In this document: positions 19,556 to 53,550 of the stretch, one piece after another | How the letters are laid out: every line of letters begins with the position of its first letter | Numbering within the stretch: the first letter of the stretch is position 1 | Sequence record: MN850622.1 | Reading direction: 5' to 3' (one strand) | DNA from: Escherichia phage mobillu | DNA: 64,000 bases | Notes under the pieces: model-generated | What the model was told of the DNA's origin: nothing | Databases searched by the model: none | Seen by the model: the letters and a program-made list of their open reading frames with translations, nothing else | Translations under genes and position numbers: made by a program

Positions 19556-19595
19556 TTTACATAAGGATGATGGTGTGTTACTATCATCCTATCAA
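19556..19595 (+). promoter_or_regulatory. T4-type early promoter in stem-loop (PeSL-like) upstream of ipI
   Basis: GTTTACA -35 box, about 17-bp spacer, -10 TACTAT inside inverted repeat AGGATGAT/ATCATCCT. Confidence 0.6.
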
Positions 19596-19618
19596 ATAAA
19601 TAACCTCAAGGAAATAAA

Positions 19619-19906
19619 ATGAAAACCTATAAAGAATTTATATCACCTTTTGCTAACGTTTCTACTCTGACCGAAGCAACCCTTACTTCCGAAGTTATTA
19701 AAGCAAATAAAGGACGTGAGGGTAAACCAATGATTAGCCTGGTTGACGGCGAAGAAGTAAAAGGTACTGTTTACTTAGGGGATGGATGGTCTGCTAAGAA
19801 AGACGGCGCTACTATTGTTATCTCTCCGGCAGAAGAGACTGCATTGTTTAAAGCTAAGCATATTTCTGTAGCTCAGCTTAAAATTATTGCAAAAACTCTT
19901 CTGTAA
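19619..19906 (+). CDS. ipI: internal protein I (capsid-targeted, injected; anti-GmrSD in T4)
   Basis: 95 aa; N-terminal capsid targeting sequence MKTYKEFISPFANVSTLTE then ATLTSEVIKANKGREGKPMISLVDGEE... matching recalled T4 IPI; 19-aa propeptide ending LTE. Confidence 0.88.
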   Translation: MKTYKEFISPFANVSTLTEATLTSEVIKANKGREGKPMISLVDGEEVKGTVYLGDGWSAKKDGATIVISPAEETALFKAKHISVAQLKIIAKTLL

Positions 19907-19909
19907 GTA

Positions 19910-19948
19910 GTTTACATCTTGATAGGACTATGTTATAGTAGTCCTATC
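19910..19948 (+). promoter_or_regulatory. PeSL-like early promoter
   Basis: GTTTACA, 17-bp spacer, TATAGT inside perfect 10-bp inverted repeat GATAGGACTA/TAGTCCTATC. Confidence 0.65.
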
Positions 19949-19976
19949 AAAACAAATGAGTAAATGGAGAAATAAA

Positions 19977-20162
19977 ATGAAACGCGCTGAACTGATTCGT
20001 AATGTTGCTGTAGTAATTGCTTCAATGGCTTTTAGTTTTTCGATGTTTGTAGGATTCATTTGCGGACTACTGACAACAACTGAAAATTCTATCTCATTGG
20101 TAGTAGCATTTCTAATCGGTTTAATCGCTATCGTTATGGATAAAATTGCAAAAGGTGAGTAA
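19977..20162 (+). CDS. small hydrophobic (membrane) protein
   Basis: ATG preceded by GGAG SD; hydrophobic core; the upstream in-frame ATG at 19956 lacks an SD. Confidence 0.5.
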   Translation: MKRAELIRNVAVVIASMAFSFSMFVGFICGLLTTTENSISLVVAFLIGLIAIVMDKIAKGE

Positions 20163-20163
20163 A

Positions 20164-20526
20164 ATGAAATATCACGTATATGCGGATTTTGAAGCAAATC
20201 CTTCTAAAGACCCTGATTGTCGTTTGATACGCAAACCATTTGATTCAGCAGCTCAAGCATGGACTTGGATTAAATCTAAATCGCCTGGTTATATGTTCTT
20301 TGAAGTAGTCGATGACAATGGTACACTGCATCCAGAACCTACAGAAACTATTAATTTCCTTATGTTTGCTGGTTACGACTGTTATCCTCTTGGCGGTATT
20401 GACGACCTTGTTGCTACAGGAAAAACTGTTGAGGCTCTTCGCGAAATTTATAAAAACGCAGAAGAAAATTTTGACTGGTATCATATTGTTGATGCTCATA
20501 CCTTTGAAATGGTGGAACATTCATGA
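20164..20526 (+). CDS. hypothetical protein
   Basis: ORF with AGGTGAG SD before the internal ATG; tightly packed with neighbours. Confidence 0.55.
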   Translation: MKYHVYADFEANPSKDPDCRLIRKPFDSAAQAWTWIKSKSPGYMFFEVVDDNGTLHPEPTETINFLMFAGYDCYPLGGIDDLVATGKTVEALREIYKNAEENFDWYHIVDAHTFEMVEHS

Positions 20527-20813
20527 TTCTTTATGCTAAAGTATCGTCCATTGAGAATGGATACGAAAGCGATCAACGTGCAGCTAAAGCACTAGTCGAT
20601 GACTACGGTATTCTGACTAACTTTGAGGTTGAAAAGGTTTATATCGACCGTTCATCTTCGCAAGTTAAATTACTCTGTGAAGACGGTAAATTTAACACAG
20701 TTAACTTTGATTTCTTTATTGAAACAGAAAAAGGCCCTCTTGAATATGATATTTTCAAGAATCCTTTGAAATTACGTTGCATTGAATATAATTACATTAA
20801 TATGGTACGGTGA
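20523..20813 (+). CDS. hypothetical protein
   Basis: ORF with ATGA start/stop overlap. Confidence 0.55.
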   Translation: MILYAKVSSIENGYESDQRAAKALVDDYGILTNFEVEKVYIDRSSSQVKLLCEDGKFNTVNFDFFIETEKGPLEYDIFKNPLKLRCIEYNYINMVR

Positions 20814-20817
20814 GTAA

Positions 20818-21333
20818 ATGAATATTTGTTTAGGCAGTACAATTCCTAAGGGTTACGTAATTGATGTCACTACTTGGGAAAATGACGGCGACAACTATAA
20901 AACTAAAACGTTGTTTGGTGTAGAAGAGCATGAGCTCCAACAGTTTAAATATCTCTTGAAGAAATTTAAGAGCCGTCATTCTAGCACCAAAGCCGAACGT
21001 TATTGCGGTAATACACCATTCAGTGATTGCTCGCTTTTAATCTATGAATACCTGGTTGAAGGACTGTTCTCAGACCAACTCCATCCGGAATTTATTAAAA
21101 AGGTCTTTGGTGTCGAAGTAGACCTTGGTGATAAATCTGAAGAAGACGAAGCCCGTGTATTCGACCTGTTCTTTGTGAAAGGCGATGAGATATCTCAAGG
21201 ACTTATTGATATTCTTGGCTATGCTTCTGAATATTATGATTACGATTTCTTGCGTGTAGTTGAACGTGTCGAATTTGCTTATATTGAAAAAGAAATTGTT
21301 TTGCCAACCGTTAAAATGGTTGATTTGCTTTAA
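20818..21333 (+). CDS. hypothetical protein
   Basis: 171 aa ORF, acidic, phage-typical codon usage. Confidence 0.6.
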   Translation: MNICLGSTIPKGYVIDVTTWENDGDNYKTKTLFGVEEHELQQFKYLLKKFKSRHSSTKAERYCGNTPFSDCSLLIYEYLVEGLFSDQLHPEFIKKVFGVEVDLGDKSEEDEARVFDLFFVKGDEISQGLIDILGYASEYYDYDFLRVVERVEFAYIEKEIVLPTVKMVDLL

Positions 21334-21412
21334 GAATTATGTGTTATTATTAATTCATACCCTCTATTACCAAAGGTGCTCTAAAGTGCCTTTCATAATA
21401 GAAAGTTATTAA

Positions 21413-21487
21413 GGCCCTGTAGCTCAATGGGAGAGCTGTCAGCTCATAACTGATAGGTAGCTGGATCGAAACCAGCCAGGGCCACCA
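21413..21487 (+). tRNA. tRNA with CAU anticodon (Met or lysidine-type Ile; T4 synteny suggests Ile)
   Basis: Cloverleaf by hand: acceptor GGCCCTG/CAGGGCC, D arm GCTC-AATGGGA-GAGC, anticodon arm GTCAG-CTCATAA-CTGAT, T arm GCTGG-ATCGAAA-CCAGC, encoded CCA. Confidence 0.75.
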
Positions 21488-21490
21488 ATC

Positions 21491-22812: not shown

Positions 22813-22845
22813 GGTATCTAGGGCATAAAAATATTTCATAAAGAT

Positions 22846-22892
22846 GTTTACTTCTTCTAAGGACATGATACTATAGACTTATCAACCATAGA
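22846..22892 (+). promoter_or_regulatory. PeSL-like early promoter
   Basis: GTTTAC, -10 TACTAT, partial inverted repeat reaching the SD. Confidence 0.55.
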
Positions 22893-22902
22893 GGAAAATG
22901 TT

Positions 22903-23406
22903 ATGAGTCTTTACACTGAACTGAATAAAAAATCTGAAGAATCTGCTGAAACTATTTTTAAAAACGTGCAAAAGCGTATTTTGGAAAAGATGTACGATGC
23001 AGCATCTAAAGGTGAAAAATCTTGCCGGTTTCCGATGAGGTGTTCTTCTGATTTATGCGCAAATACTATTGAATGGCTGGAAAGTGAAGGTCTTACGGTA
23101 GAGAAAAACCCGGCGACTTCTATTGACGGCGAATCATATATTAGTATTTCTTGGGATAAATCAAGGGTAGAAGAGAAAGATGGTGATTGGGTTGTAGATG
23201 TTAAAACTTCTGATGGTGGACGTTCTGTTGAAGTTTCGGCTGTAGTTAAAGGTACCCACGAACAAAGGACTTGGGGTTGGGGTGGTGAAGAAAAAGAAAT
23301 TGTTCTTAGTGTGATTGCCAGGTCAACTAGTAATAAAATTGCACAAAGCATCATTGACGCTGCAATTGCTGAAGCAGAAAAAATTTGCAAAATTAAAAAT
23401 AAATGA
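22903..23406 (+). CDS. hypothetical protein
   Basis: 167 aa charged protein after GAGGAAAA SD; fully antisense ORF 22911..23420 judged artefactual. Confidence 0.6.
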   Translation: MSLYTELNKKSEESAETIFKNVQKRILEKMYDAASKGEKSCRFPMRCSSDLCANTIEWLESEGLTVEKNPATSIDGESYISISWDKSRVEEKDGDWVVDVKTSDGGRSVEVSAVVKGTHEQRTWGWGGEEKEIVLSVIARSTSNKIAQSIIDAAIAEAEKICKIKNK

Positions 23407-23455
23407 TGTACAAACGCCAAGGATGGTGGTACTATAGACTTATCAACTACAGAGG
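23406..23455 (+). promoter_or_regulatory. PeSL-like early promoter
   Basis: TGTACA -35 variant, 17-bp spacer, TACTAT; downstream arm contains GAGGAG SD. Confidence 0.55.
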
Positions 23456-23464
23456 AGTAACAAA

Positions 23465-23629
23465 ATGACTACTTTAATTATTTGGTTCGATGAAAATGAA
23501 GAAACATACTGTGTGAATATTGATGAAAGTCCAATGCCTGAATTTGAATCCTCGGATAAAAACTCTGTTGTATCTTGGGCTGAAGGTTATAAAGCAGCTA
23601 AAGGTGACGTTGAAATAATTTACATCTAA
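23465..23629 (+). CDS. small hypothetical protein (54 aa)
   Basis: ATG 8 nt after GAGGAG; below the 60-aa track cutoff. Confidence 0.4.
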   Translation: MTTLIIWFDENEETYCVNIDESPMPEFESSDKNSVVSWAEGYKAAKGDVEIIYI

Positions 23630-23660
23630 GTAAGTTTATGTTATAGTAGTCCTATCAAAT
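23617..23660 (+). promoter_or_regulatory. PeSL-like early promoter
   Basis: TTTACA, 17-bp spacer, TATAGT, right arm TAGTCCTATC. Confidence 0.55.
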
Positions 23661-23675
23661 CAAGAGGAAAACAAA

Positions 23676-23903
23676 ATGGCTAAAGTTAGTATTGATGTCG
23701 TTGATTATGAATACACAGAAGAAGTTATTCGCAACCGCCACCCTGAAGTTCGTATCGATTCAGTCCAAGATTCCAAGTTCTGGACAACTGAGCTTAATCT
23801 GAGTGGTCCTTATGAAGCTGTTAAGAAGTTCATGGTTGAAGAATACTGCGAAGGCATGCACCCCGAAGACGCCAAGTTTTATGTCAATTTGATTAAAAAA
23901 TAA
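23676..23903 (+). CDS. hypothetical protein
   Basis: 75 aa ORF after AGAGGAAAA SD. Confidence 0.55.
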   Translation: MAKVSIDVVDYEYTEEVIRNRHPEVRIDSVQDSKFWTTELNLSGPYEAVKKFMVEEYCEGMHPEDAKFYVNLIKK

Positions 23904-23945
23904 TTTACAAACTCTTGAGAGCAGAGTATAATGCTCTCGTTGGAT
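23903..23945 (+). promoter_or_regulatory. PeSL-like early promoter (near-identical copy at 53513)
   Basis: TTTACA, 17 bp, TATAAT flanked by inverted repeat GAGAGC/GCTCTC. Confidence 0.6.
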
Positions 23946-23973
23946 AATAAACCACCAATTGAAAGGTAATAAT

Positions 23974-24567
23974 ATGAACACACTGAAGAAACTTGTTGAA
24001 TTCATCCGCACTAAACTGGGTACTGCTATGGCTAAAAATCTGACTGTCGAAGAACAGTATAACGCAGCTGCAGATAAGTTGATTACCCAAATCAAAGAAC
24101 TAAAAACGGCTTCTGTTAAATCTATTAATGAAGAAAAACGTATTCGCGAACTTGTTAATGAAAAGAACAAGCAAGCCGCTTCTAAGGAACGTGAAATTCG
24201 TAAGCTCCTGGCTGAAGGACAAGATGTTACCATGCATGCTAAGCTTGGTCTTCTGTATCGTCGAACTGCCGAACAACTTAATACAAAAGCTGACGGGTAT
24301 GCCGCTATGCGAATTGAAATTGCTCGTAAGGTGGTTGAACTTGATGATGCTCGTCAGAATCTGGCAATCAAACTCGAATACATTCGTGAAACTCGAGCAG
24401 CCAATGCCCTTGGTATCTCTACGGCTGATGATGTAATTGAAATCGCTGCACTGACTAAGGTTGATATCGAAGACACTCTGACTCGTGTTGAAACGTTCAA
24501 TGGCACTCCAGCCGGCGTCGAAACCACTTCTGCTGATGTACAAGAATATATTAACTCTTTGAAATAA
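23974..24567 (+). CDS. coiled-coil protein, possibly PspA/IM30-like
   Basis: Internal [19 protein letters not shown]... with AAAGGTAA SD; long heptad-like helical sequence; family call is weak. Confidence 0.55.
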
Positions 24568-26514: not shown

Positions 26515-26712
26515 ATGTCTCGTGAATTAGATTGTGCTGTACGTACGGCAGTAGCTGCTCTGGAAAACCTGTTCCAAATTGCAACAGAAGAACGCGAAGA
26601 AGTTACATTATGGATTGAAGATAACGCAGGTCTGAATCTCCAGGACGCGATCTCATTATCCCACAATAGTATCACTGTTCAAGGCTGGGTATCATCTAGT
26701 TATTCTTGCTAA
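26515..26712 (+). CDS. small protein, tandem paralogue 3
   Basis: 65 aa; C-terminus QGWVSSSYSC. Confidence 0.55.
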   Translation: MSRELDCAVRTAVAALENLFQIATEEREEVTLWIEDNAGLNLQDAISLSHNSITVQGWVSSSYSC

Positions 26713-26715
26713 AAC

Positions 26716-26756
26716 AGTTTACAACAAGATAGGGCTATGTTATAGTAGTCCTATCA
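26716..26756 (+). promoter_or_regulatory. PeSL-like early promoter
   Basis: GTTTACA, TATAGT, inverted repeat GATAGGGCTA/TAGTCCTATC. Confidence 0.6.
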
Positions 26757-26774
26757 AAACAAATGGAGTCCACA

Positions 26775-27014
26775 ATGATTTATTACGAAAGTATCGGAAC
26801 CAAAGTGGTTGGTAAAACCATTACTCGTGAAAAGTTTGCAAAGATATTCGATATGCGTTATAAAAAATCTGAACACAAAGGCATCCGATTCGAAGATGCG
26901 CACTGTACAATTTGCCCTTATAATGAAGACATAAACGGTACAATCGTTCCATTGGTAGAGGCTTCACATGATGACCTCTGGGATGAATATAATATCGCAT
27001 GTCGTGAAATTTAA
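26775..27014 (+). CDS. hypothetical protein (Cys/His-containing)
   Basis: ATG MIYYESIG... 7 nt after GGAG. Confidence 0.5.
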   Translation: MIYYESIGTKVVGKTITREKFAKIFDMRYKKSEHKGIRFEDAHCTICPYNEDINGTIVPLVEASHDDLWDEYNIACREI

Positions 27015-27042: not shown

Positions 27043-27999
27043 ATGTTGTTAGTTATTGGTTCTCGTGCACTTCACTATCACGGTCTTATTGATTCTAGCG
27101 CTATTAAAAATAGTGATTGGGACTTTATTGCGGACCAAGGTTCTTGGAATGCATTCAAAAATCAAATGATGGGTGTATATGTTCACCAAGATAACCCTGA
27201 TGTCCAAGTTTTCAAATGCTTCCATAATGGACGCGAAACTCATTTTGAAGCATACATCGTTCCGGCTATCACTAACGTTCGCGAACTAGTCGGTGAACTC
27301 ACTCCTGAAGATTTCACGTCTTCTTATGACCTTTTAAAATACGCCAAGAAAAATTTGGCTAAAGACCGTTTGAACGGGTTTTACTGGGCAACTCCTGAGA
27401 TATGTCTTGCAATTAAGATGTCTCATCGTTTCAAGAAAAATAATCCATTCTTTTTAAAGACTATGAACCATATTCAGTATCTTCGTGGTAAAGGTGTTAC
27501 ACTGAACGATGAACTTACTGAAATTATGCTGAAACGCCAGAAAGAAACCTTGAATTATGCTCACCCAGTTCTTGACACTTCTAAAAGTGCGTTCTTTAAA
27601 GATGACATCTATACGTATGACCATGATACTATCCATGAAGCCATTGCACTAACTGACCAGCCTGCTTATAAGTTTTATATGAAAGAAGGCTCAGAAGTTA
27701 TGACATCACGCGAGAAGTTCGAATCATTACCAGAAATGGTTAAATTAGCCGGTGTATATGAAGAAGCTTGTGTATTAGCTCTTGAACGTTCACAGATTCC
27801 TAACGACTTTAAAATCCATCCACGTGATAGTTTTATGATGGCCCTTGAAAAGGTCTGTACATCAATCACATCAGGATGGTTCCGTGAGTTCGCTTGGGAA
27901 AATTATAGCAAAGTAGTAAGTATGTACCAAAGCTTAGGACACGACGATTACGTCAAGCGTTTCAAACAAAACTTTCATATGGTAAAACCTTTCAAATAA
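27043..27999 (+). CDS. hypothetical protein with nucleotidyltransferase-like N-terminal motif
   Basis: 318 aa; N-terminus VIGSRALHYHGLIDSSAIKNSDWDF resembles the G-S...D-x-D Pol-beta NTase signature (spacing longer than typical). Confidence 0.6.
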   Translation: MLLVIGSRALHYHGLIDSSAIKNSDWDFIADQGSWNAFKNQMMGVYVHQDNPDVQVFKCFHNGRETHFEAYIVPAITNVRELVGELTPEDFTSSYDLLKYAKKNLAKDRLNGFYWATPEICLAIKMSHRFKKNNPFFLKTMNHIQYLRGKGVTLNDELTEIMLKRQKETLNYAHPVLDTSKSAFFKDDIYTYDHDTIHEAIALTDQPAYKFYMKEGSEVMTSREKFESLPEMVKLAGVYEEACVLALERSQIPNDFKIHPRDSFMMALEKVCTSITSGWFREFAWENYSKVVSMYQSLGHDDYVKRFKQNFHMVKPFK

Positions 28000-28011
28000 T
28001 TTCACAAAACA

Positions 28012-28050
28012 GTTTACAAGGTCTGTAGTTGTTGATACTATAGACCTATC
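28012..28050 (+). promoter_or_regulatory. PeSL-like early promoter
   Basis: GTTTACA, 17 bp, TACTAT, inverted repeat around -10. Confidence 0.6.
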
Positions 28051-28079
28051 AAAACAAATGAGTGAATGGAGATATAAAA

Positions 28080-28280
28080 ATGACTACTTTGAATAAACGT
28101 TTCGGTAAAGCTAAACCTGGTTGTGCAGCAGAACGTCGTTATGTTTTCGCTCAGTTAGAAGATGTAGAGTATCAGATTAATCAAGTTCACATTACTGGTA
28201 TCGAGCCTATGTGTGGCCTTGAAGCTCTTCGTGAAGTTCGTGATGGGTATCGTCGTGACATCGAAGAAATGTCAAAATAA
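28080..28280 (+). CDS. hypothetical protein
   Basis: ATG MTTLNKRFGKAKPG... after TGGAGA SD. Confidence 0.5.
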   Translation: MTTLNKRFGKAKPGCAAERRYVFAQLEDVEYQINQVHITGIEPMCGLEALREVRDGYRRDIEEMSK

Positions 28281-28320
28281 GTGTACAAACTGATAGGACT
28301 ATGTTATAGTAGTCCTATTA
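28281..28320 (+). promoter_or_regulatory. PeSL-like early promoter
   Basis: TGTACA, TATAGT, inverted repeat GATAGGACTA/TAGTCCTAT. Confidence 0.6.
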
Positions 28321-28338
28321 AAACATGAGGAGAATATT

Positions 28339-28644
28339 ATGAAATTAGGCGAAACCAACCGAATTGGTCTTTTAACAATATTTGTATCACTTTTTTACGC
28401 AGCTCTTTCTGTTGCAGTATTACAAAAGGCTTACAGTATGGATGGTGTTCCTGGTTTTGTATTCTTATCGCCGTTTTTGCTATTCGTTGGAGCATTGTTA
28501 TTATATGCCACGACTAGTTTCGACCATAACGTCTGGGTCAATTATAAATGTAAATTGTCTGAAGAAGAACACGCAGAAGCTCGTAAAAAAGCTATTGAAT
28601 CTACCAATCTAGAAAATTTCATTAAAGAATGTCGAGGAAAATAA
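28339..28644 (+). CDS. small membrane protein, C-terminal ENFIKECR family
   Basis: 101 aa, two hydrophobic helices, C-terminus NLENFIKECRGK. Confidence 0.6.
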   Translation: MKLGETNRIGLLTIFVSLFYAALSVAVLQKAYSMDGVPGFVFLSPFLLFVGALLLYATTSFDHNVWVNYKCKLSEEEHAEARKKAIESTNLENFIKECRGK

Positions 28645-31028: not shown

Positions 31029-31306
31029 AAACATATAGTGAATTTTTATCAGAATCTATTCTTAACGAAGCTACTGACACATTTGCAACTAAGCTAGGTG
31101 CAGCTTTGGTTGAAGCCGAAAGTCTATTAGCACGTATTTCTGAACTTGCTAGTAAGATAGATACTCGCAAATTTGAACGTACCAGCGATATCGCTAAGCT
31201 TGAAGCCTTGTTACGTATGTGCGATAAACCGGAAGAAATCGCTAAGAACGGCTCGCTAATGAAACAACGTCTTGAAAAATATATTTCAGGCGCTTCAGAA
31301 AAATAG
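31025..31306 (+). CDS. internal-protein-like, capsid-targeting sequence at N-terminus
   Basis: 93 aa; N-terminus [10 protein letters not shown]; ATGA overlap with e stop. Confidence 0.65.
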
Positions 31307-31307
31307 T

Positions 31308-31362
31308 GTTTACTTCCTCCAAGGACTTTGATACTATACATTCATCAACTACTTGGAGGAAA
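31308..31362 (+). promoter_or_regulatory. PeSL-like early promoter upstream of denV
   Basis: GTTTAC, TACTAT, long inverted repeat ACTTCCTCCAAGG/CCTTGGAGGAA whose right arm is the SD. Confidence 0.65.
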
Positions 31363-31364
31363 TT

Positions 31365-31778
31365 ATGACCCGTATCAATTTAACACTTGTTTCTGAACTG
31401 GCCGTCCAACATCTTATGGCTGAGTATCGTGAATTACCACGCGTATTTGGTGCAGTCCGTAAACATGTTCAAAATGGTAAACGTGTAAAGGATTTTAAAA
31501 TCTCTCCAACATTTATCTTAGGCACAGGTCACGTAACATTCTTTTACGACAAACTCGAATTTTTACGTTTACGTCAAATCGAGCTAATCACTGAATGCTT
31601 GAAACGTGGTTTCAAAATCAAGGACACGACTGTCCAGGATATTTCCGACATCCCTGCCGAATTTCGTAATAATTATGTCCCGTCCGAAGCGTCCATTGCG
31701 ATAAGTCAAGCACGCTTAGATGAAAAAATTGCTCAACGGCCGTCTTGGTACAAATATTATGGCAAATCAATTTACTAA
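31365..31778 (+). CDS. denV: endonuclease V (pyrimidine-dimer DNA glycosylase)
   Basis: [35 protein letters not shown]... near-identical to recalled T4 DenV. Confidence 0.96.
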
Positions 31779-33924: not shown

Positions 33925-34223
33925 TGGCTCAAATCCTATCAGGCTTTGGAACTCATTATGAAGCGTCTAGACGCATAACTGAAAGCAATCCTTTTGGCCT
34001 TGTTCCGAAGCACAAGAAAATTCAAAGCCTTGATGACTTTGAGAACCGCCTATGGGCCCTCTTTAATGAGTACAAGGCATATCTGAAAGAAGACGCTGAC
34101 GATTGTCTTGAAGAAGATGAGATTGCGTATTACGAACAACGCCTTGAACAGCTAAAGAACTTCCATCAGGTTCGTGACGAAGTATCTAAAGCAGTTAAAA
34201 AGTTAATTCCTTTCAAAGAGTAG
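33924..34223 (+). CDS. hypothetical helical protein
   Basis: 99 aa, immediately upstream of regB. Confidence 0.55.
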
Positions 34224-34273
34224 TTTACTTCTCCTCTAGTTGTGTTACTATAGACTTGTCAACTAGAGGAGAA
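34223..34273 (+). promoter_or_regulatory. PeSL-like early promoter upstream of regB
   Basis: GTTTAC, TACTAT, 14-bp inverted repeat TTCTCCTCTAGTTG/CAACTAGAGGAGAA with SD in right arm. Confidence 0.65.
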
Positions 34274-34279
34274 ATCAAA

Positions 34280-38325: not shown

Positions 38326-38363
38326 TTTACATCTTGGTAGGACTATGTTATAGTAGTCCTATC
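38325..38363 (+). promoter_or_regulatory. PeSL-like early promoter
   Basis: GTTTACA, TATAGT, inverted repeat GGTAGGACTA/TAGTCCTATC. Confidence 0.6.
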
Positions 38364-38382
38364 AAAACAAACGGAGAACAAA

Positions 38383-38493
38383 ATGAAACTTTTGCTTATC
38401 GCTTATGTTGTAGTACAATACAATTATCCGATGTTTACTTATAACATGGTAAACGGCATAGTGAATCTTATTGAAACGAGTATGGTAAAATGA
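38383..38493 (+). CDS. very small hydrophobic peptide (36 aa)
   Basis: ATG after ACGGAGAA; MKLLLIAYVVVQYNYPMFTY...; below track cutoff. Confidence 0.3.
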   Translation: MKLLLIAYVVVQYNYPMFTYNMVNGIVNLIETSMVK

Positions 38494-40972: not shown

Positions 40973-40993
40973 GGGGACCTTCGGGTCCCTTTA
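40973..40993 (+). terminator. intrinsic terminator
   Basis: GGGACC-TTCG-GGTCCC then TTTA. Confidence 0.65.
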
Positions 40994-41019
40994 GGGGGTT
41001 AAAATATTTTTAAAAAGTA

Positions 41020-41058
41020 GTGTACATGCTTTTAGGATATGATACTATAGACCTATCG
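41020..41058 (+). promoter_or_regulatory. PeSL-like early promoter
   Basis: TGTACA, TACTAT, inverted repeat around -10; leader nearly identical to the 19948 and 28050 leaders. Confidence 0.6.
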
Positions 41059-41086
41059 AAACGAAATGAGTAAATTGGAGAATAAA

Positions 41087-42067
41087 ATGTTCAACGTTCA
41101 AATCAAAAAAGGTATCTATCGTAATAACGAAATCTCTGGTTCTTATGTTGCCACAAAGACCTGGTTCCCGGCAAAGCTTAATCCTGAATGTTCCCACTTA
41201 GGTGATGGTAAAATTTTCGTTATGATTGATGGATCTGAACGTGGAGTATGGGTCTTCAAATCAGACATCGTAATGGAAGGAGTTGAGACGTCACCAGTTG
41301 CAGTTGTTGAAAGCACTGAAGATATGAAAACTCGTATCAACAAACGCTTTAAAGTAATGAACATGATGACGAATGGCATTATCGATGGCAAAATTCGTTC
41401 ACTCATTATTTCAGGTGCAGCTGGTATTGGTAAGACGTATTCTCTGGATAAAGCACTTAATAATGCTAATGATAATGGTTTCATCAAATACAAAAGCATT
41501 AATGGTAAAATCTCTGGTATTGACCTTTACGAACAACTTTGGCTCAACCGTGATGCAGACAGCGTTCTCTTAATCGATGACGTTGACGTATTCTCAGATA
41601 TGGACATCCTGAACCTTCTTAAAGCAGCATTAGATACCGGAGATAAACGCAAAGTTTGTTGGAGCACTGCGTCATCTTATCTCGAGGATAAGGGTATTGA
41701 TAAAGAATTTGAGTTTGAAGGTACTATCGTTTTCATTACAAACGTTGATATCGATAAAGAGTTAGAACGGGGTTCGAAACTTGCTCCACACCTTCAAGCT
41801 TTAGTATCTCGTTCAGTGTATCTCGACCTTGGAGTACACTCTAATGAAGAGATTATGGTTCGAGTTGAAGATGTAATATTATCTACTGACATGATGCAGA
41901 AACGTGGTCTGACGGATGCAGAAACGTATAAAGCATTGTCCTGGATGAAGGCTAACGTATCTCGTCTTCGCAATGTATCATTACGTACGGCTCTTTATGT
42001 AGCAGATTTTATTTCAACTGATAAAGATGGTTGGGAAGAAATCTCGGAAGTTACTTTACTGAAATAA
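41087..42067 (+). CDS. AAA+/P-loop ATPase
   Basis: Walker A GAAGIGKTY and Walker B VLLIDDVD; about 100-aa N-terminal domain. Confidence 0.7.
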   Translation: MFNVQIKKGIYRNNEISGSYVATKTWFPAKLNPECSHLGDGKIFVMIDGSERGVWVFKSDIVMEGVETSPVAVVESTEDMKTRINKRFKVMNMMTNGIIDGKIRSLIISGAAGIGKTYSLDKALNNANDNGFIKYKSINGKISGIDLYEQLWLNRDADSVLLIDDVDVFSDMDILNLLKAALDTGDKRKVCWSTASSYLEDKGIDKEFEFEGTIVFITNVDIDKELERGSKLAPHLQALVSRSVYLDLGVHSNEEIMVRVEDVILSTDMMQKRGLTDAETYKALSWMKANVSRLRNVSLRTALYVADFISTDKDGWEEISEVTLLK

Positions 42068-42205: not shown

Positions 42206-42493
42206 ATGGATTTTATGCAAAAAATTAAAGCCGCAGTCGAACTCTATGCTCATCGTATGGTTAGTTCTACAATGCAATATAGCGAGGAGGTTCGCCAGGA
42301 CTCTTCCTTGAAAGGAAAAACTAAAGCCTTAATTACCTTAGATCGTTTGCAAAAGAATGCCATAGAGATGCTCCAGTACGACAAGGGTGTATATAAGAAA
42401 GAACAGGAAGAGAAACTTAAATCTGAAAAATTAAAGAAAATCCCGAAGTCGGTTTGGTTCAGTGGAAAAAATACCGAAAAAAGTTTCTTTTAG
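42206..42493 (+). CDS. hypothetical protein
   Basis: 95 aa after AGAGGA SD. Confidence 0.5.
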   Translation: MDFMQKIKAAVELYAHRMVSSTMQYSEEVRQDSSLKGKTKALITLDRLQKNAIEMLQYDKGVYKKEQEEKLKSEKLKKIPKSVWFSGKNTEKSFF

Positions 42494-42495
42494 TT

Positions 42496-42540
42496 GTTTA
42501 CAAGGTCTATGGTTATGTTATTATAGACCTATCAACTACT
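42496..42540 (+). promoter_or_regulatory. PeSL-like early promoter
   Basis: GTTTACA, 17 bp, TATTAT, inverted repeat GGTCTAT/ATAGACC. Confidence 0.55.
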
Positions 42541-42551
42541 GGAGGTAAAAC

Positions 42552-43079
42552 ATGAACGCTAAAGATATTTTCAACCTGGTGAATTATAACGACGGTAAAT
42601 TTAAATCTGAAGCACAAAGCAAGTTCTTTAATGACGTTGCTTATGGTAACGAGATTACCGTGGACGGAGGTCAGATTTTCAAATCTCGCTGGAATTGGAT
42701 TGTTATCATCGATTCAGTTGGAATTGTGGAAGTCTACAAAAACACTAACAAAAAACGTACATTATTCTGGTCTCGTGAAACTAACGAGCAGTACAAAAAG
42801 GATAAAGCATCTCGTTTATCCAAAGTAACCCAGGAAGATATCGAGTTTATCAAGAAAGATATCGAGATGTACGAAAATTTAATTGCTGAAGACCAGGCAG
42901 TACTCGATAAGTTTGATGAAATTAAAGCTTCTCGTGAAATCCCTGACTTCATGAAAGAAACAGTAAACGAACGATACGCTCTCACTTCAGAACGTATTGC
43001 AAACTATACAAAACAGAAAGCAGAACGTATTAGTACTCTTCGGAAATTTGAAGAACGTTTAAAGACGGTTCACGCATAA
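42552..43079 (+). CDS. hypothetical protein with C-terminal coiled coil
   Basis: 175 aa after GGAGG SD. Confidence 0.6.
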   Translation: MNAKDIFNLVNYNDGKFKSEAQSKFFNDVAYGNEITVDGGQIFKSRWNWIVIIDSVGIVEVYKNTNKKRTLFWSRETNEQYKKDKASRLSKVTQEDIEFIKKDIEMYENLIAEDQAVLDKFDEIKASREIPDFMKETVNERYALTSERIANYTKQKAERISTLRKFEERLKTVHA

Positions 43080-43141: not shown

Positions 43142-44137
43142 ATGAGCATTACATCTGATGCGGTAAAACATGAAATTAACGGTTTATGTGCTTCACAGAT
43201 TAAAGTGTGGTTTAAAGACCATAACGATCGCAGAGCACTTAATTATGAACAAATTGCTATCCAAGTTCATCAATTACTGGTTAGTAAATTTGATTTTCAT
43301 ATGCCGTCTGAAATCTATACTAATCTGCCGCGAGCACTTATTAAAGCGTGTAAAGGTTATGGAAAATCAATGGCTGATGGAATCTTCAGCGCGCTGAATA
43401 AACTTAACGTTCTGTCGATGATTAACTCTAACAACATCCTGCGTAATCTAGGACGTACTGATTTGTTCGGCCGTGAACAGTGTAAAATGCCTTTGAAATG
43501 GATTGTTGCTCATCTTAACGAGAACCAAACACGTTTTATGGCCGTAACAGCACGCTTACAAATGGGCCTAGATCGTCAGATGAACTTTAAAACTCATCCA
43601 CGTTATTCAGGTTCAACTGACTTTTATAAATGTGAGCTTCAAAAGGTCGGTGGCAAAACCGTCTTAGTAGTTCGTGTAACGTTTGAAGGACGACGTCAAG
43701 GATATTTTGACATAATCGGCTCTGGACTTAAACATTGTGGATTTATCGACGAAGTTGATATCAAGCGAGACGGCGTTGGATACCGTATTGGGTATGTTTG
43801 TACTCTTAAAGAAGAGATTTCAGGACCAGCTCCAGGACTAAAAGACGTTAGATATAAAGACGAGCTCGTTGAAGAAATAAAAGAAGTTGAATATGATATC
43901 AACCAAGAAGATGCTCTTAAAGACCTTATTGATGAACTGAACCAAGACGTTATTCCGGTTCAGAAATTTGAATCAAAACATGCTGAGCAAATCAAATACT
44001 TTGAAGCTTTGATTAACGAACTTAATGTAACTATTCAACAGACTGACGATGAAATCTCACGATTAGCAGGCTTAAACGGTAAAAATAAAACAGAACGAGC
44101 TAATCTTATTCAAGTAGTAAAACTTCTTAAGGAATGA
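43142..44137 (+). CDS. hypothetical protein (about 330 aa, C-terminal coiled coil)
   Basis: ATG after GAGG; first of three tandem, similarly sized genes. Confidence 0.65.
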   Translation: MSITSDAVKHEINGLCASQIKVWFKDHNDRRALNYEQIAIQVHQLLVSKFDFHMPSEIYTNLPRALIKACKGYGKSMADGIFSALNKLNVLSMINSNNILRNLGRTDLFGREQCKMPLKWIVAHLNENQTRFMAVTARLQMGLDRQMNFKTHPRYSGSTDFYKCELQKVGGKTVLVVRVTFEGRRQGYFDIIGSGLKHCGFIDEVDIKRDGVGYRIGYVCTLKEEISGPAPGLKDVRYKDELVEEIKEVEYDINQEDALKDLIDELNQDVIPVQKFESKHAEQIKYFEALINELNVTIQQTDDEISRLAGLNGKNKTERANLIQVVKLLKE

Positions 44138-44166
44138 TGTACAACCAAGGATGGTTGGAGTATAAT
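44137..44166 (+). promoter_or_regulatory. early promoter (repeat copy A)
   Basis: TGTACAACCAAGGATGGTTGGAGTATAAT; palindrome CCAAGGATGGTTGG in spacer. Confidence 0.55.
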
Positions 44167-44192
44167 AAATTTTTCAACATGAGGAATATAAA

Positions 44193-45152
44193 ATGGCTTT
44201 TATTACACGTAGAGAACTTATCAAAGAATTTACCTCGAACGCATATACTCCAGGACCTAATCCTATCCGTATGCCTGTAAAGACTCCTGAAGAGATTGAG
44301 GAAATCTGTTCATATTATGGGATTACTTCTCGTAAGTTTACTCAATTTGAATGCGTTACTAACACACCCGTTAAAGAGTTCATTAAAAATGGCGAGTTCA
44401 GCCGTTTATTGGCCAAACAGAAACTTCGTAATTTTTGTATTGGCGGTGAAGGACAATATTTCGCTAAGCAGTTCCGGAATAACCTTAACAATCTGATGGC
44501 CATTGCTTCTCGTATTCGTCCTCAAGCAATTAACATGAAACATTTGAAATATACTTACGATAAGTTGGAAATCATGGTTATCAGTGAGAACGAGTTCACT
44601 CTCACGTATAAACCTAAGAATGATAACGTTGCTCGTGTATTCCACCAAGCGTTGGAAGTGTTAGGTGATAATATTCACCAGATTAAAGCAATTTATTCTC
44701 GTGAGCTTAATATTATCAACCCTATCAAGAATAAGGGCCATATCGCTATCCAGGCTCGTGTATCTATTGGTAAAAAGGTTCCTGCGCCATGGTGGCACAA
44801 AGACTCCGAATATTATCAAAATCTTAAAAAGGAAAATGCATTGTTTGAAGCATCGCTTACTGGGACCCCAATTGAACAGGCCGAAGTCCTAAGTGCTTAT
44901 TCTACTTCGGGTAAATCAATGTTTAAAGGTTTGCCAAATGTGTGCAAACTGTCTGCAGTAAAACTAAATGTTTCTAATGACCTTCTTCCGGTCGAAGATT
45001 ACCATTACAATCAAATCAAGGCCACTATGGACCAACTGTCTGTTGAACTTGACAAAGCACAAGCTAAGCTTCGTGATGCTCAAAGTGTTGTAACGAATCT
45101 CCAGTTGCAGTATTCTAAACTTTTTAACGCAATGAATGCGTTAAAATCATAA
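44193..45152 (+). CDS. hypothetical protein (319 aa, C-terminal coiled coil)
   Basis: ATG after GAGGAA. Confidence 0.65.
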   Translation: MAFITRRELIKEFTSNAYTPGPNPIRMPVKTPEEIEEICSYYGITSRKFTQFECVTNTPVKEFIKNGEFSRLLAKQKLRNFCIGGEGQYFAKQFRNNLNNLMAIASRIRPQAINMKHLKYTYDKLEIMVISENEFTLTYKPKNDNVARVFHQALEVLGDNIHQIKAIYSRELNIINPIKNKGHIAIQARVSIGKKVPAPWWHKDSEYYQNLKKENALFEASLTGTPIEQAEVLSAYSTSGKSMFKGLPNVCKLSAVKLNVSNDLLPVEDYHYNQIKATMDQLSVELDKAQAKLRDAQSVVTNLQLQYSKLFNAMNALKS

Positions 45153-45156
45153 ATCA

Positions 45157-45186
45157 GTTTACAACCAAGGATGGTTGGAGTATAAT
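45157..45186 (+). promoter_or_regulatory. early promoter (repeat copy B)
   Basis: GTTTACAACCAAGGATGGTTGGAGTATAAT, near-identical to 44137 copy. Confidence 0.6.
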
Positions 45187-45214
45187 GAATTTATCTTAAC
45201 GAGAGGAAAATATT

Positions 45215-46165
45215 ATGACACGTTCACATTACATTGAATACTTTGCAGGTCTTATCGCTAACGTTCATGCCCAACGTGCTTCTGGTGTACTAGGATTTGA
45301 TGTTCCACACCGAGATGTAGTAAGTGGTATTCTTCGAGATTTTGGTACATACGTAGGCCAAGAAAATCATATCTGTAAAGATACTCAAAATGCATATTCT
45401 CATTCATTAGGGACACTGCTTCAATGGTTCAAACGTTCTCGTTTATTATCTTCTACTGTAGCTCGCGATAACATTAAAAACTTTATGAAGCCGAGCTTTA
45501 TTAAATCTGTGACATCTAAAACCGATTTGGTTGAATTCACTATTGTTAATGATGTTAAAAAGACTCATTTGGCTGATTGGTTAACTACCATTCCTGAAAC
45601 TAAATTTGCCGATAAATTTGCTTGTGAATTCAATAACCAAGTGAATATGCTTTTTAAACATTCTCGTAAATTATTCACAGGCGGCGATTCTCGTACAAAT
45701 ACAGTTCATGCTAAAGATTGGGTTACTGCAGTGTTCAAACCAACCGGTAATGGTACCGCATCATTATCAATTGATATTCAGGTTCCTTATTATCACTCAC
45801 GTAATCTCGGCACCATGAAAGCTGAAGAAATTAAGAAGCACAATAAAACCATTCGTTCGCTGTCTTATAAACTTCGCATGATGTTAAGAATCATGGACGT
45901 GGTAGAAATGTATGATGAAACCGAAGATAATGGTTCAATGTTATACAGTTCTCGCATTCAAATTAAGTTGAAGAACCCTAACGAGTATAAGCCTAAGCCT
46001 ATTAAAGAGCCTAAAGCAGAAAAAGTTGATAACTTAAGAGAAGAACGCGAATATCTCAAATCTCGTCTGAAAGAAGTCGAAGCCCAGATTGCAGAACAAA
46101 CTAAATCGTTAAAAGCTCTGAATGCGAAAGCGGATGGTTTACGAAATGCCATTGAGGTGTTATAA
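45215..46165 (+). CDS. hypothetical protein (316 aa, C-terminal coiled coil)
   Basis: ATG after AGAGGAAAA. Confidence 0.65.
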   Translation: MTRSHYIEYFAGLIANVHAQRASGVLGFDVPHRDVVSGILRDFGTYVGQENHICKDTQNAYSHSLGTLLQWFKRSRLLSSTVARDNIKNFMKPSFIKSVTSKTDLVEFTIVNDVKKTHLADWLTTIPETKFADKFACEFNNQVNMLFKHSRKLFTGGDSRTNTVHAKDWVTAVFKPTGNGTASLSIDIQVPYYHSRNLGTMKAEEIKKHNKTIRSLSYKLRMMLRIMDVVEMYDETEDNGSMLYSSRIQIKLKNPNEYKPKPIKEPKAEKVDNLREEREYLKSRLKEVEAQIAEQTKSLKALNAKADGLRNAIEVL

Positions 46166-47524: not shown

Positions 47525-47652
47525 ACCATGGTATTCGGCTCGATGGGAAACTGTCGAGCCAGACGTCGAAACAGTTTACAACGACGAAGAAACGTGTTAT
47601 GATGAACCTACAGTAAACGATATGATTGATTTGGAAATGGGAAGAGATTATT

Positions 47653-51975: not shown

Positions 51976-52084
51976 CCAGGTGCCGCCTGGTCTTCTTTAT
52001 CTCATTTCTAATATAATCCATTGGAATCTTCACTTCACTATCTCCTTGTGCCCCTCTCAAATCAAAAAATATTTTCATAAAACA

Positions 52085-52135
52085 GTTTACATCCTCAATA
52101 AATGTGTTAAGATTAAACCATCTACTATAGAGGAA
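52085..52135 (+). promoter_or_regulatory. early promoter (PeSL-like, weaker stem)
   Basis: GTTTACA, about 16-17 bp, TAAGAT; downstream GAGGAAAA SD. Confidence 0.45.
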
Positions 52136-52141
52136 AATAAA

Positions 52142-52324
52142 ATGACAATTGAAGATAAAGAAATTAAGGTTGACCAGTACTATTCTGTCAATGGTAATGC
52201 AGTACAGATAACCAGAGTTTCAAGCCTGGATGTTTGGTACCGTTCAATCAAATATCCAGAAATTGGCGAAATGCTTTGTGACCGTGGTATCTTCTGTTCA
52301 ATTGCGAAGGAAATTAAGCTATGA
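52142..52324 (+). CDS. hypothetical protein
   Basis: ATG MTIEDKEIKVDQYY... after AGAGGAAAA. Confidence 0.5.
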   Translation: MTIEDKEIKVDQYYSVNGNAVQITRVSSLDVWYRSIKYPEIGEMLCDRGIFCSIAKEIKL

Positions 52325-52569
52325 TTAGTTTAGATTCAAAGAAAGTTGTTCTAACCCTTAAAGTTAATGACGAGCGACCGGTATTCGTTACCATTTCCGA
52401 TTTGCATGTTGAAATTGCTAATGGCGTCCGTACTTATCAAACGTCTAAAACACATTGGGACTATATCCCGATGTTGACGCTTACTCAGCGTTTAGAATCA
52501 ATCGGTCTTAAAGACCTTTCAGTAAGTGAAGTGAATTTTATCAAACGCATTGTATCAATCAACCTCTGA
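52321..52569 (+). CDS. hypothetical protein
   Basis: 82 aa, ATGA coupling. Confidence 0.55.
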   Translation: MISLDSKKVVLTLKVNDERPVFVTISDLHVEIANGVRTYQTSKTHWDYIPMLTLTQRLESIGLKDLSVSEVNFIKRIVSINL

Positions 52570-52576
52570 GGTACTT

Positions 52577-52870
52577 ATGGGTAAAACGTATCGTCGTAAA
52601 GATTTGAAAGTTCGTGATTATGACTATTTTGGTAAACGTAAAGCTCCTGACGGTGTTAGCCACAAAGACATGGTTGAAAACATTTTCCGCTCAGATAAAT
52701 GGAAACGTATGAAAGGCGTTGATTCCGAAGTCAAGAATGAAATGAATCGACAACTCCGCAAAGAAGTTCGTAAGTTGAAAAAAGATGTTTACAGTAAAGA
52801 AGATTATGATTATAATACTTCTCATACTGAAGCCAAACGTAAAGCTAACGAATGTTATCGTTACAGTTGA
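52577..52870 (+). CDS. hypothetical basic protein
   Basis: ATG MGKTYRRKDLKV... after GAGG. Confidence 0.55.
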   Translation: MGKTYRRKDLKVRDYDYFGKRKAPDGVSHKDMVENIFRSDKWKRMKGVDSEVKNEMNRQLRKEVRKLKKDVYSKEDYDYNTSHTEAKRKANECYRYS

Positions 52871-52877
52871 GGAAATT

Positions 52878-53012
52878 ATGAATATCAAACGAATGCTTTT
52901 TAAGCAGGGATTATATACTTTAAATGTTAATCCAAAGGGTGATACAACTAAATGGTCCGTAAATGACTGGATTAAGTTCATCGATGAAAATGGGGCCTGG
53001 AACACAAAATGA
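52878..53012 (+). CDS. small hypothetical protein (44 aa)
   Basis: ATG after GAGGAAA. Confidence 0.4.
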   Translation: MNIKRMLFKQGLYTLNVNPKGDTTKWSVNDWIKFIDENGAWNTK

Positions 53013-53209
53013 ATCCTGAATCTATGTTATCGCAAAAGCTTCGTGAAGAACGTGCCGAATTCTTTGCCAATATGAAACTCAACGGCGTTGAGGATGAAGA
53101 CTTCTTACGCTGGTTCTGGATTTACAAATACAAAGAATGCCAGCACGCTGTACTACTGACTTGTGCAGTTATGTACGAAGGCTGGAAAGGCGCTAAAAAG
53201 TTCGGTTAA
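53009..53209 (+). CDS. hypothetical protein
   Basis: 66 aa, ATGA coupling. Confidence 0.5.
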   Translation: MNPESMLSQKLREERAEFFANMKLNGVEDEDFLRWFWIYKYKECQHAVLLTCAVMYEGWKGAKKFG

Positions 53210-53211
53210 TA

Positions 53212-53250
53212 ATGTACAACGATAGGAAGACATGTTATTATCTTCCTATC
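53212..53250 (+). promoter_or_regulatory. PeSL-like early promoter
   Basis: TGTACA, 17 bp, TATTAT inside perfect inverted repeat GATAGGAAGA/TCTTCCTATC. Confidence 0.6.
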
Positions 53251-53272
53251 GTCTTAAAATGAGGAAAATATC

Positions 53273-53512
53273 ATGGCCCAAGAATTAGATTTTATCAAAT
53301 TCAAAAAACACCTCGACGTTAAAATTGGGGATTCAATTGTTAGGATTGAGTATGACATTTTAACAGATGCTATTACTATTAGTTGTGATGGAAATAGTTT
53401 CAGCTTCGATACAACCGAAAACAAATACCCAATCTATAAAGGCATCTTTGATATGGGTGTTGATATTACTCCACGTGATACAAATTACTTACTTTTCATG
53501 CTTAAAAAATAG
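53273..53512 (+). CDS. hypothetical protein
   Basis: 79 aa after TGAGGAAAA. Confidence 0.55.
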   Translation: MAQELDFIKFKKHLDVKIGDSIVRIEYDILTDAITISCDGNSFSFDTTENKYPIYKGIFDMGVDITPRDTNYLLFMLKK

Positions 53513-53550
53513 TATACAAACTCTTGAGAGATGAGTATAATTCTCTCGTT
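53513..53550 (+). promoter_or_regulatory. PeSL-like early promoter (near-identical copy of 23903)
   Basis: TATACAAACTCTTGAGAGATGAGTATAATTCTCTCGTTGGATAATAAA. Confidence 0.6.

Follow-up and report, generated by a model that had tools for sequence, protein, structure and literature searches.

Putative early-promoter cassettes with selected stem-loops in the hyperplastic region of the RB69-like Escherichia phage mobillu

Promoter-early stem-loops (PeSLs) were first defined in the phages RB49 and phi1 in 2010 (PMC2839356) and were extended to the PST/T4 group in 2014 (PMC4122927). In such an element an upstream stop codon in A/T-rich DNA is followed by an early promoter, a stem-loop at the promoter boxes, a Shine-Dalgarno (SD) sequence and a start codon. 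PeSLs are found in hyperplastic regions, before small accessory genes and at the edges of indels and replacements between close relatives. In the PST/T4 group the promoter reads TTTACW-N17-TAYWAT, the stem is of the type AGNA-loop-TCNT, and the SD sequence and the start codon follow at the 3' side (PMC4122927). A 64,000-nucleotide stretch of Escherichia phage mobillu (MN850622.1; "the window" in what follows) carries 20 intergenic cassettes on its + strand between 19.5 and 53.6 kb that resemble PeSLs in all these respects, including the PST/T4 promoter consensus and stem type. They are very probably early promoters and PeSLs; consensus, stem type, SD sequence and start codon fit the published descriptions (PMC4122927, PMC2839356) and support the interpretation given in the original prediction. 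A known element has been identified correctly, in a phage closely related to a well-studied one, and the finding is as such already known. The analysis contributes quantitative evidence that the stems are selected at the RNA level and in the sense strand, and the observation that terminator tails are missing.

The window also departs from the published PeSLs. RB69-like Mosigvirus was not among the pairs analysed in the PeSL papers. The PST stems are placed 'just upstream of the promoter' (2014 legend, PMC4122927), whereas the 5' arm in the window lies inside the spacer. Finally, the stems of the window lack a T-run and are at most putative terminators.

Three further systems are close. The early promoters of T4 belong to the 'UP/-35/TGn/-10' class (Hinton 2010, PMC2988021), and those of RB69 were catalogued by Nolan et al. 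2006 (PMC1524935; 58 sites in the supplement, 57 according to the paper's text). The cassettes share with both the GTTTAC-type -35 box with T instead of G at -33, the TGn-extended -10 box, TAnnnT and an A-rich upstream region. The catalogues, in contrast, describe the promoter only; the words 'stem-loop', 'hairpin' and 'inverted repeat' are absent from the text of Nolan et al. Promoters of this T4 type are used by the unmodified RNA polymerase of the host in the first minutes of an infection. The T-even internal-protein (IP) loci contain conserved promoter-containing linkers (Repoila et al. 1994, as cited in PMC2839356 and PMC4122927), which the PeSL literature notes as analogous, with 'weaker, more AT-rich' stems. 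As far as these citations describe them, the linkers resemble the window cassettes 19556 and 19911, which flank a replaced internal-protein gene, but the window cassettes are spread over ~34 kb, beyond the IP loci. In the T4 genes e, soc, 49 and I-TevI, a helix sequesters the SD sequence in long transcripts, and a late promoter lies inside the hairpin (PMC3014915).

The window derives from an RB69-like Mosigvirus, a T4-type phage. Many T4-type phages of Escherichia and Shigella match its segment 19556-23556 with 95-98% identity; over 19.5-44.4 kb the top matches are the Mosigvirus members MM02, JK45 and RB69 (96-98% identity), and T4 aligns with ~70-80% identity only. The + strand of the window corresponds to the - strand of T4, and the cassettes occupy the stretch from genes 57B/ipI to 55, the classical early, hyperplastic region. 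Rfam yielded nothing beyond two tRNAs between 19 and 55 kb, and the T4 RefSeq record has no promoter features annotated.

A simple promoter pattern, T[TG]TAC[AT]-N16-18-TANNNT, matches the + strand 26 times, compared to 6.7±2.5 times (maximum 14) in 200 dinucleotide shuffles; 24 of these matches fall within 19.5-54 kb. On the - strand there are 5 matches (8.7±2.7 in shuffles, maximum 16). A position-weight scan yields 21-22 sites on the + strand of the window and none on the - strand, be it of the window or of any of 21 related loci. A scan for the generic sigma-70 boxes TTGACA/TATAAT reveals no enrichment (75 vs 65.9±8.1 and 52 vs 50.8±7.6), and the signal is therefore specific to the T4-type pattern. 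At least 20 copies of a recurring early-promoter cassette had been predicted, and this number holds: there are 20 intergenic cassettes plus one site in a coding sequence. One of the cassettes, 53513, has TATACA as its -35 box and hence falls outside the simple pattern; it was caught by the position-weight scan.

The cassettes read (G)T[T/G]TAC[A/T]-N16/17-(TGn)TAnnnT-leader-SD-ATG, with the consensus ttttcaNaaAatagTtTACAt ... aTGtTAtNaT-agaCcTATCaAa, which comprises an A-rich upstream region, GTTTACA, TGn, TAnnnT and a conserved initial transcribed region. TGn is present in 16/20 and a G at -36 in 15/20; T is found at -33, and the A-rich sequence at -40 to -44, as is typical of T4 early promoters. 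All 20 finish in the SD sequence and ATG of a downstream gene, 37-54 nt past the -10 box, as PeSLs do before their mostly non-essential genes. With a constant offset of +15, 20 of the 21 sites coincide with RB69 early promoters that Nolan et al. 2006 had predicted independently. The only site without an RB69 counterpart is 28013, and RB69 lacks the gene behind it. The coding-sequence site 47575 (47560..47610, +; -10 TATGAT at 47598), a probable early promoter without a cassette-type leader, is kept in T4 and equals RB69 Pe:48639. Three more sequences, at 25830-25858, 46138-46166 and 52788-52816, look like promoters (TTTACG/TTTACA, N17, TATAAT) and have neither a cassette-type leader nor a stem. 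At the first, an indel edge is seen in the comparison with p000v and phiC120; the last is kept in T4 and lies at the start of an open reading frame.

A clear inverted repeat is present in 15 of the 20 cassettes, which are named here after the position of the -35 box. In class A the helix brackets the -10 box (n = 10: 19556, 19911, 23904, 26718, 28013, 28282, 38326, 42497, 53213 and 53513). In class B the bases just past the -35 box pair with the SD sequence (n = 5: 22847, 31309 before denV, 34224 before regB, 37877 and 52086); the 5' arm is then located at about -35 to -21, i.e., the final -35 base plus spacer. Three cassettes (23407, 44138 and 45158) have a spacer hairpin of 5-6 bp only, and two (23619 and 41021) lack an internal repeat. 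The 5' arm of a helix is always within the promoter spacer and thus upstream of the expected start, which is ~7 nt past the -10 box. The stems are AT-rich, reach -6 to -21 kcal/mol and lie, like those of PeSLs, between, over or beside the -35 and -10 boxes. When the RNA from -35 box to ATG was folded, 12/19 cassettes had z<-2 compared to shuffles (mean z -2.9); the same holds for 57% of 157 distinct cassettes from all loci, here with mononucleotide shuffles as background. The arms originally predicted were recovered: those given as 19921/19938 as 19921-19930 with 19939-19948, 1 nt off; those at 53221/53241 as 53221-53230 with 53241-53250; those before denV as TTCCTCCAAG 31314-31323 with CTTGGAGGAA 31352-31361; and those before regB, 34229-34242 with 34260-34273 (14 bp), as they stood. 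An early-type promoter with its -10 box bracketed by a helix (GATGGGACTAT/ATGGTCCCATC) is also seen at position 15975 of a distant contig (locus L017, IMG/VR contig 638275429, regB 40% identical), and the architecture therefore reaches well past the T-even and RB69 groups.

The inverted repeats are selected and not a product of chance. Orthologous promoters of T4 retain the helix with different sequences: TGATGAGGTA/TACCTCATCA at ipI, CTCCTGTAG/CTACAGGAG at denV, CTCTTGACTG/CAGTTAAGAG at regB and TTGACAAGATT/AATCTTGTCAA at mobD.2. In the T4 orthologue of the nrdC.8 cassette 42497 the spacer pairs with the SD sequence, unlike in the window copy. Upstream of regB, in 16 IMG/VR loci (40-98% protein identity), the anti-SD arm is constant and the arm extension covaries (TAGTTG/CAACTA, TTGACTG/CAGTTAA, TTTATG/CATAAA, TGTAAG/CTTACA). 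Swapping halves between five regB lineages lowers the mean stability from -19.1 to -10.2 kcal/mol, the native combination ranking first of 120 permutations. Swapping arms between the paralogous cassettes of the window yields -8.3±0.76 versus -12.8 kcal/mol for the native ones (p≤5e-5), and with 36 non-redundant cassettes from all loci the values are -7.6±0.41 and -11.7 kcal/mol (p≤5e-5), the p-values of pooled sets being optimistic because many of the compared cassettes share descent. These alignment-free tests were chosen because a MAFFT alignment of the regB cassettes lost the register of the arms. When 15 class A cassettes of the same register are aligned without gaps, 8/14 pairs show double changes and 83.8% of the cells are paired, compared to 75.9±1.2 when shuffled; sliding the partner leaves no more than 58%. 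Since this set was chosen by eye, the result is supportive, not independent. That the repeats should be kept among relatives had been proposed as a check; they are, with compensatory change.

Of course, palindromy could also be inherited without any function, if the cassettes were recent copies of each other that go back to one founder. The core of the 3' arm, (T)AGTCCTAT, is indeed common to six cassettes, among them 19911, 23619, 26718, 28282 and 38326, and recombination between cassettes would homogenise them. There are, however, at least ten unrelated arm pairs, e.g., AGGATGA/TCATCCT, GAGAGC/GCTCTC, AGGAAGA/TCTTCCT, GGGCCAT/ATGGCCC and the T4 mobD.2 pair mentioned above, and in orthologous promoters both arms are replaced together. 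The arm-swap tests already contradict such an origin, which is hardly credible.

The helices also reveal in which strand they matter. Among 63 distinct helices the internal non-Watson-Crick pairs are G·T (20), A·C (2), A·A (4) and A·G (1). Transitions in a perfect helix should produce as many G·T as A·C pairs; the observed split is far from even (binomial p=1.2e-4). Moreover, the sense strand of the 157 distinct cassettes folds better than the antisense strand. Both results therefore indicate selection on the sense strand. The folding molecule is most simply RNA; sense single-stranded DNA is possible. As the 5' arm lies upstream of the expected start, the folded RNA would stem only from an upstream promoter.

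An action of the repeats in DNA, be it as cruciforms or hairpins attracting recombination or repair nucleases such as endonuclease VII, or as palindromes to which a dimeric protein binds, would explain recombination hot spots, since breakpoints cluster at cassettes (see below), and Arbiol et al. speculated that the stem-loop is the target of a DNA-binding protein. Yet the arm sequences differ wholly between copies with pairing kept, which excludes a sequence-specific protein site. Also, 20 G·T versus 2 A·C is unexpected for a double-stranded cruciform, where both mismatches occur on one strand or the other, and in two exact indels the breakpoints are in the -35 boxes, not in the stems. An action at the DNA level thus appears very unlikely.

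More attention is due to the possibility that the stem-loops are terminators or attenuators, as proposed for the PeSLs of RB49/phi1, and leave each gene mainly to its own promoter. The stem-loop of an RB49/phi1 PeSL cut lacZ expression about as strongly as rrnB T1 (Arbiol et al., PMC2839356). The helices of the window are likewise intergenic and act in sense RNA. The helix-less cassette 41021 has a terminator-like hairpin 21 nt upstream, and one Tequatrovirus copy has a canonical terminator just upstream. However, 41 terminator-like sites with stem plus T-run were found in 19.5-54.5 kb, and no cassette stem is among them. Behind the -10-bracketing stems the sequence is A-rich (ATCAAAACAAA), and the AT-rich stems with their -6 to -21 kcal/mol are unlike the GGGG/CCCC stems that were tested experimentally. 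Lacking a T-run after every stem, they are therefore not canonical intrinsic terminators. Termination or attenuation is a possible role of the stems, though not a probable one. The best canonical-looking intrinsic terminators of the region are two GC-rich palindromic hairpins at 24576-24593 and 51974-51992, terminator-like on both strands, which no cassette adjoins.

With a probability of roughly 0.8 we regard the cassettes as the early promoters of this RB69-like T4-type phage, dependent on sigma-70 and each built as an expression cassette complete in itself. Its parts would follow each other as an A-rich UP region that often abuts the stop codon of the preceding gene, (G)TTTACA, a spacer of 16-17 nt ending in TGn, TAnnnT, a conserved leader with a GGAG-type SD sequence and the start codon of one accessory gene. 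The helix could form only in read-through RNA begun at an upstream promoter. In class B, to which denV and regB belong, the ribosome-binding site would be concealed by the helix in read-through RNA and open in the cassette's own transcript, and translation of the gene would depend almost wholly on its own early promoter. In class A the helix would be an intercistronic hairpin across -10/+1 that attenuates or pauses upstream transcription or else protects the 3' end of the upstream message. Each gene would thereby become a context-independent module, and with ~60-90 bp of cassette sequence in common, T4-type recombination would have homology enough to remove, add or exchange genes one by one.

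In the own transcripts of the five class B cassettes the SD sequence is predicted to be unpaired with a probability of 0.46-0.64; in read-through RNA this value falls to 0.0. A helix that holds SD/AUG and loses its 5' arm in the proximal transcript is thus predicted for 5/20 cassettes (22847, 31309, 34224, 37877 and 52086) and not for the other 15. That these SD-pairing helices act as a translational filter has about an even chance. That the -10-bracketing helices attenuate transcription is doubtful. With less than even odds, the stem-loop of T-even/RB69-type cassettes may be regarded as a 'promoter-of-origin filter' and not as a terminator. The 5' arm would then be written into an otherwise unconstrained promoter spacer; it would hide the ribosome-binding site in 5/20 copies and cap the intercistronic junction in 10/20, and the accessory gene would be translated solely from its own early promoter and be off when this promoter is off.

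Such a device would not be without precedent in T4. As in e, soc, 49 and I-TevI, the proximal promoter of class B is within the region of the 5' arm, and the own transcript is predicted to be open. The known inner promoters, however, are late (gp55), and expression is delayed; with the early inner promoter of class B, expression would be confined to the early burst. None of the inner promoters in the window is of the late type (gp55, TATAAATA); they are early-type. The cassettes may therefore work like the e/soc/49/I-TevI family, yet they are not members of it.

A related idea ties downstream translation to upstream translation instead of abolishing it. The helices could be translational-coupling gates, the ribosome-binding site being opened when a ribosome ends the upstream gene and melts the 5' arm. 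The upstream stop codon indeed ends 0-5 nt before the -35 box in 13/20 cassettes. Before denV and regB the 5' arm starts 8-10 nt past the first base of the stop codon, inside the ribosome footprint, and the spacing upstream of regB is equal in T4 and other lineages. But in 3/5 SD-pairing cassettes (22847, 37877 and 52086) the upstream stop is 46-110 nt away, and the tight spacing may reflect just genome compaction plus stop codons within the A/T-rich UP region. Such coupling is a live, if improbable, alternative.

Several points weigh against packaged promoters with a filtering helix, in addition to the limits of the pooled and the same-register comparisons mentioned above. A convincing helix is absent in 5/20 cassettes. 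The register of the helix relative to the promoter varies, with at least four registers among the -10-bracketing copies, which fits 'any hairpin will do' and weakens any single mechanistic model. The ten -10-bracketing helices leave the SD sequence untouched, and the idea of a translational filter therefore excludes them. A terminating ribosome could melt the 5' arm, which would result in coupled translation instead of silence. Finally, within the literature collection searched, nothing relevant came up on start-site mapping in T4 or RB69, and no transcript 5' ends for RB69 or the present phage; promoter activity rests on sequence and the T4 literature.

The mobility of the cassette-gene modules was analysed by comparing the window with RB69, p000v, phiC120 and mogra, considering events of at least 100 nt. 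Of 39 distinct indel edges, 13 are inside cassette intervals, defined as -20..+90 of a -35 box and making up 5.8% of the region (binomial p=1.6e-7). Insertions, deletions and replacements between close relatives thus have edges in the cassettes, as is known from PeSLs. The swapping of gene content between cassettes that had been anticipated is seen, with breakpoints inside the cassettes. Two events are exact. The gene 28080-28280 is found only in the window, being absent from the four close relatives, and its two edges fall into the -35 boxes of the flanking cassettes, 28013 and 28282. Phage mogra similarly lacks the gene 53273-53512; here the edges lie in the -35 boxes of 53213 and 53513. The internal-protein gene flanked by 19556 and 19911 has been replaced in relatives, and on its left the replacement begins past the N-terminal MKTYxEFI codons, which are shared.

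The module 27990..28344 (+), which consists of cassette 28013, the 66-aa gene 28080-28280 and cassette 28282, is 91-95% identical to one in the Tequatroviruses R5505 and slur14, where it is located between nrdC.11 and nrdC.10 (2501-2855 of locus L022 and 2501-2832 of locus L023). The flanking genes there share only ~75% identity with nrdC.11 and nrdC.10 of the window. Homology extends from ~23 nt before the first -35 box to 6 nt inside the following gene. From these limits and the exact indels it follows that cassette, gene and cassette are exchanged as one unit, in line with the PeSL model, to which the excision of mini-circles between neighbouring cassettes also belongs. The module is, to judge from sequence, a clean case of single-gene horizontal transfer. 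Its class A stems are 28019-28029/28037-28047 in cassette 28013 and 28291-28301/28310-28320 in cassette 28282; the ATG of the next gene is at 28339. The second complete unit, 53198..53581 (+), comprises cassette 53213 (class A stem ACGATAGGAAGA 53219-53230 / TCTTCCTATCGT 53241-53252; z -4.8), the gene 53273-53512 and cassette 53513 (class A stem GAGAGA 53526-53531 / TCTCTC 53542-53547; ATG 53579).

The remaining cassettes, all on the + strand, can be described class by class. In class A, cassette 19556 (19541..19621) is found before the internal-protein gene in the ipI position and equals RB69 Pe:76812; it has TTTACA as -35 box, TACTAT at 19579, ATG at 19619 and a stem of 19564-19574/19580-19590 (z -3.9). 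Cassette 19911 (19896..19979), RB69 Pe:76459, precedes the tRNA.4 homologue with TATAGT at 19934 and its start ATG at 19977; its stem, TTGATAGGACTA 19919-19930 / TAGTCCTATCAA 19939-19950, has a z of -6.5. Cassette 23904 (23889..23976; TATAAT 23927, ATG 23974) precedes e.6 and pairs GAGAGCA 23917-23923 with TGCTCTC 23932-23938 (z -2.9). In cassette 26718 (26703..26777; -10 26741, ATG 26775) the stem is GATAGGGCTA 26728-26737 / TAGTCCTATC 26746-26755 with one G.U pair (z -4.4). Cassette 38326 (38311..38385; -10 38349, ATG 38383) has the stem TTGGTAGGACTA 38334-38345 / TAGTCCTATCAA 38354-38365 (z -5.4), and cassette 42497 (42482..42554; TATTAT 42519, ATG 42552), before nrdC.8, pairs 42503-42513 with 42520-42530 (z -2.5).

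Four of the five class B cassettes share TTTACT as -35 box. Cassette 22847 (22832..22905; -10 22869, ATG 22903) pairs 22852-22862 with 22886-22896 over the SD sequence (z -3.2; predicted SD unpaired 0.58 -> 0.0 from own transcript to read-through RNA). The denV cassette 31309 (31294..31367; -10 31332, ATG 31365) has a z of -5.1 (0.49 -> 0.0), and the regB cassette 34224 (34209..34282; -10 34246, ATG 34280) one of -4.8. Cassette 37877 (37862..37934; -10 37899, ATG 37932) pairs 37882-37893 with 37916-37927 (z -1.7; 0.46 -> 0.0). The fifth, cassette 52086 (52071..52144; TAAGAT 52108, ATG 52142), precedes the 55.6 homologue; its stem is TCCTCAATA 52092-52100 / TATAGAGGA 52126-52134 (z -1.5; 0.64 -> 0.0).

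The cassettes with a small hairpin or none are the following. Cassette 23407 (23392..23467; TGTACA, -10 23430, ATG 23465) has only the spacer hairpin CGCCAaggaTGGTG (z -0.7). Cassette 44138 (44123..44195) combines TGTACA, TATAAT at 44161 and ATG at 44193 with the spacer hairpin CAACCAaggaTGGTTG; cassette 45158 (45143..45217) has TATAAT at 45181 and ATG at 45215. Their spacers, 44144-44160 and 45164-45180, are identical over 17 nt (ACCAAGGATGGTTGGAG) and form a small hairpin with an AGGA loop, which recurs on other stems in the T4 counterpart of 44138 (CCACAaggaTGTGG) and in cassette 23407. Near-identical cassettes separate the three tandem genes of ~320 aa at 43142, 44193 and 45215. A tandem duplication comprising these and the 41087 gene is not supported, mutual similarity being undetectable. 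Cassette 23619 (23604..23678; TATAGT 23642, ATG 23676), before the frd.3 homologue, retains the 3' arm AGTCCTATC with a degenerate 5' arm and hence has no stem (z 0.1). Cassette 41021 (40984..41089; TGTACA, -10 41043, start ATG 41087), before nrdC.10, is likewise devoid of an internal stem (z 0.4). The terminator-like hairpin upstream of it, GGTCCCTTTAGGGGGTT at 40984-41000, is followed by an A/T-rich tail; at the same locus of Tequatrovirus R5505 a canonical terminator stands directly upstream of the cassette.

The leaders after 19911, 28013 and 41021 had been said to be nearly identical and to contain an in-frame upstream ATG. The near-identity is real (ATCAAAACAAATGAGTAAATGGAGAAATAAAATG). 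The ATG is in frame in two of them (19956->19977 and 41066->41087) and out of frame in the third (28058->28080). It lacks an SD sequence, and orthologous leaders read ATA or AAC at this place. The ATG is part of the shared leader and not a conserved upstream start.

The SD sequences also invite a comparison with targets of the RegB nuclease, the cleavage of which at GGAG is blocked by structure (PMC3014915). In 11/20 cassettes the SD sequence contains GGAG followed by A-rich sequence. The exact GGAGRAYARAA, the published consensus of strong RegB/S1 sites, occurs in the window only at 38373-38383 and 41077-41087, which are the SD sequences of cassettes 38326 (GGAGAACAAAA) and 41021 (GGAGAATAAAA). 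With the full consensus in two cassettes only, RegB targeting was too weak to become part of the cassette definition.

One neighbouring segment may be mentioned. A non-coding, GC-rich stretch of ~180 nt (32055-32232) separates the vs.8 homologue from the 90-aa gene that follows denV. Exactly at 32055 all four close relatives hold 0.7-1.06 kb of additional DNA, including ipIII and in some also ipII. From 32128 onward the sequence is homologous to the 5' part of T4 vs.8, of which it may be a decayed 5' end. When tested for RNA structure, 32055-32232 proved to be unstructured (z +1.8).

The cassettes explain how dozens of small accessory genes of T4-type phages are expressed in an immediate burst and how genes are swapped between phages one at a time. 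Both ideas have already been published, and the finding therefore mainly shows that a known architecture can be recognised from raw sequence. Sense-strand, RNA-level selection and the missing terminator tails, however, question the label 'terminator' for the T-even/RB69 variety. The read-through-specific 'promoter-of-origin filter' is the one new testable angle, the gain being otherwise incremental. If true, early genes would have a general counterpart to the hairpins around the late promoters of e, soc, 49 and I-TevI, and the ability of the modules to function wherever recombination places them would be explained.

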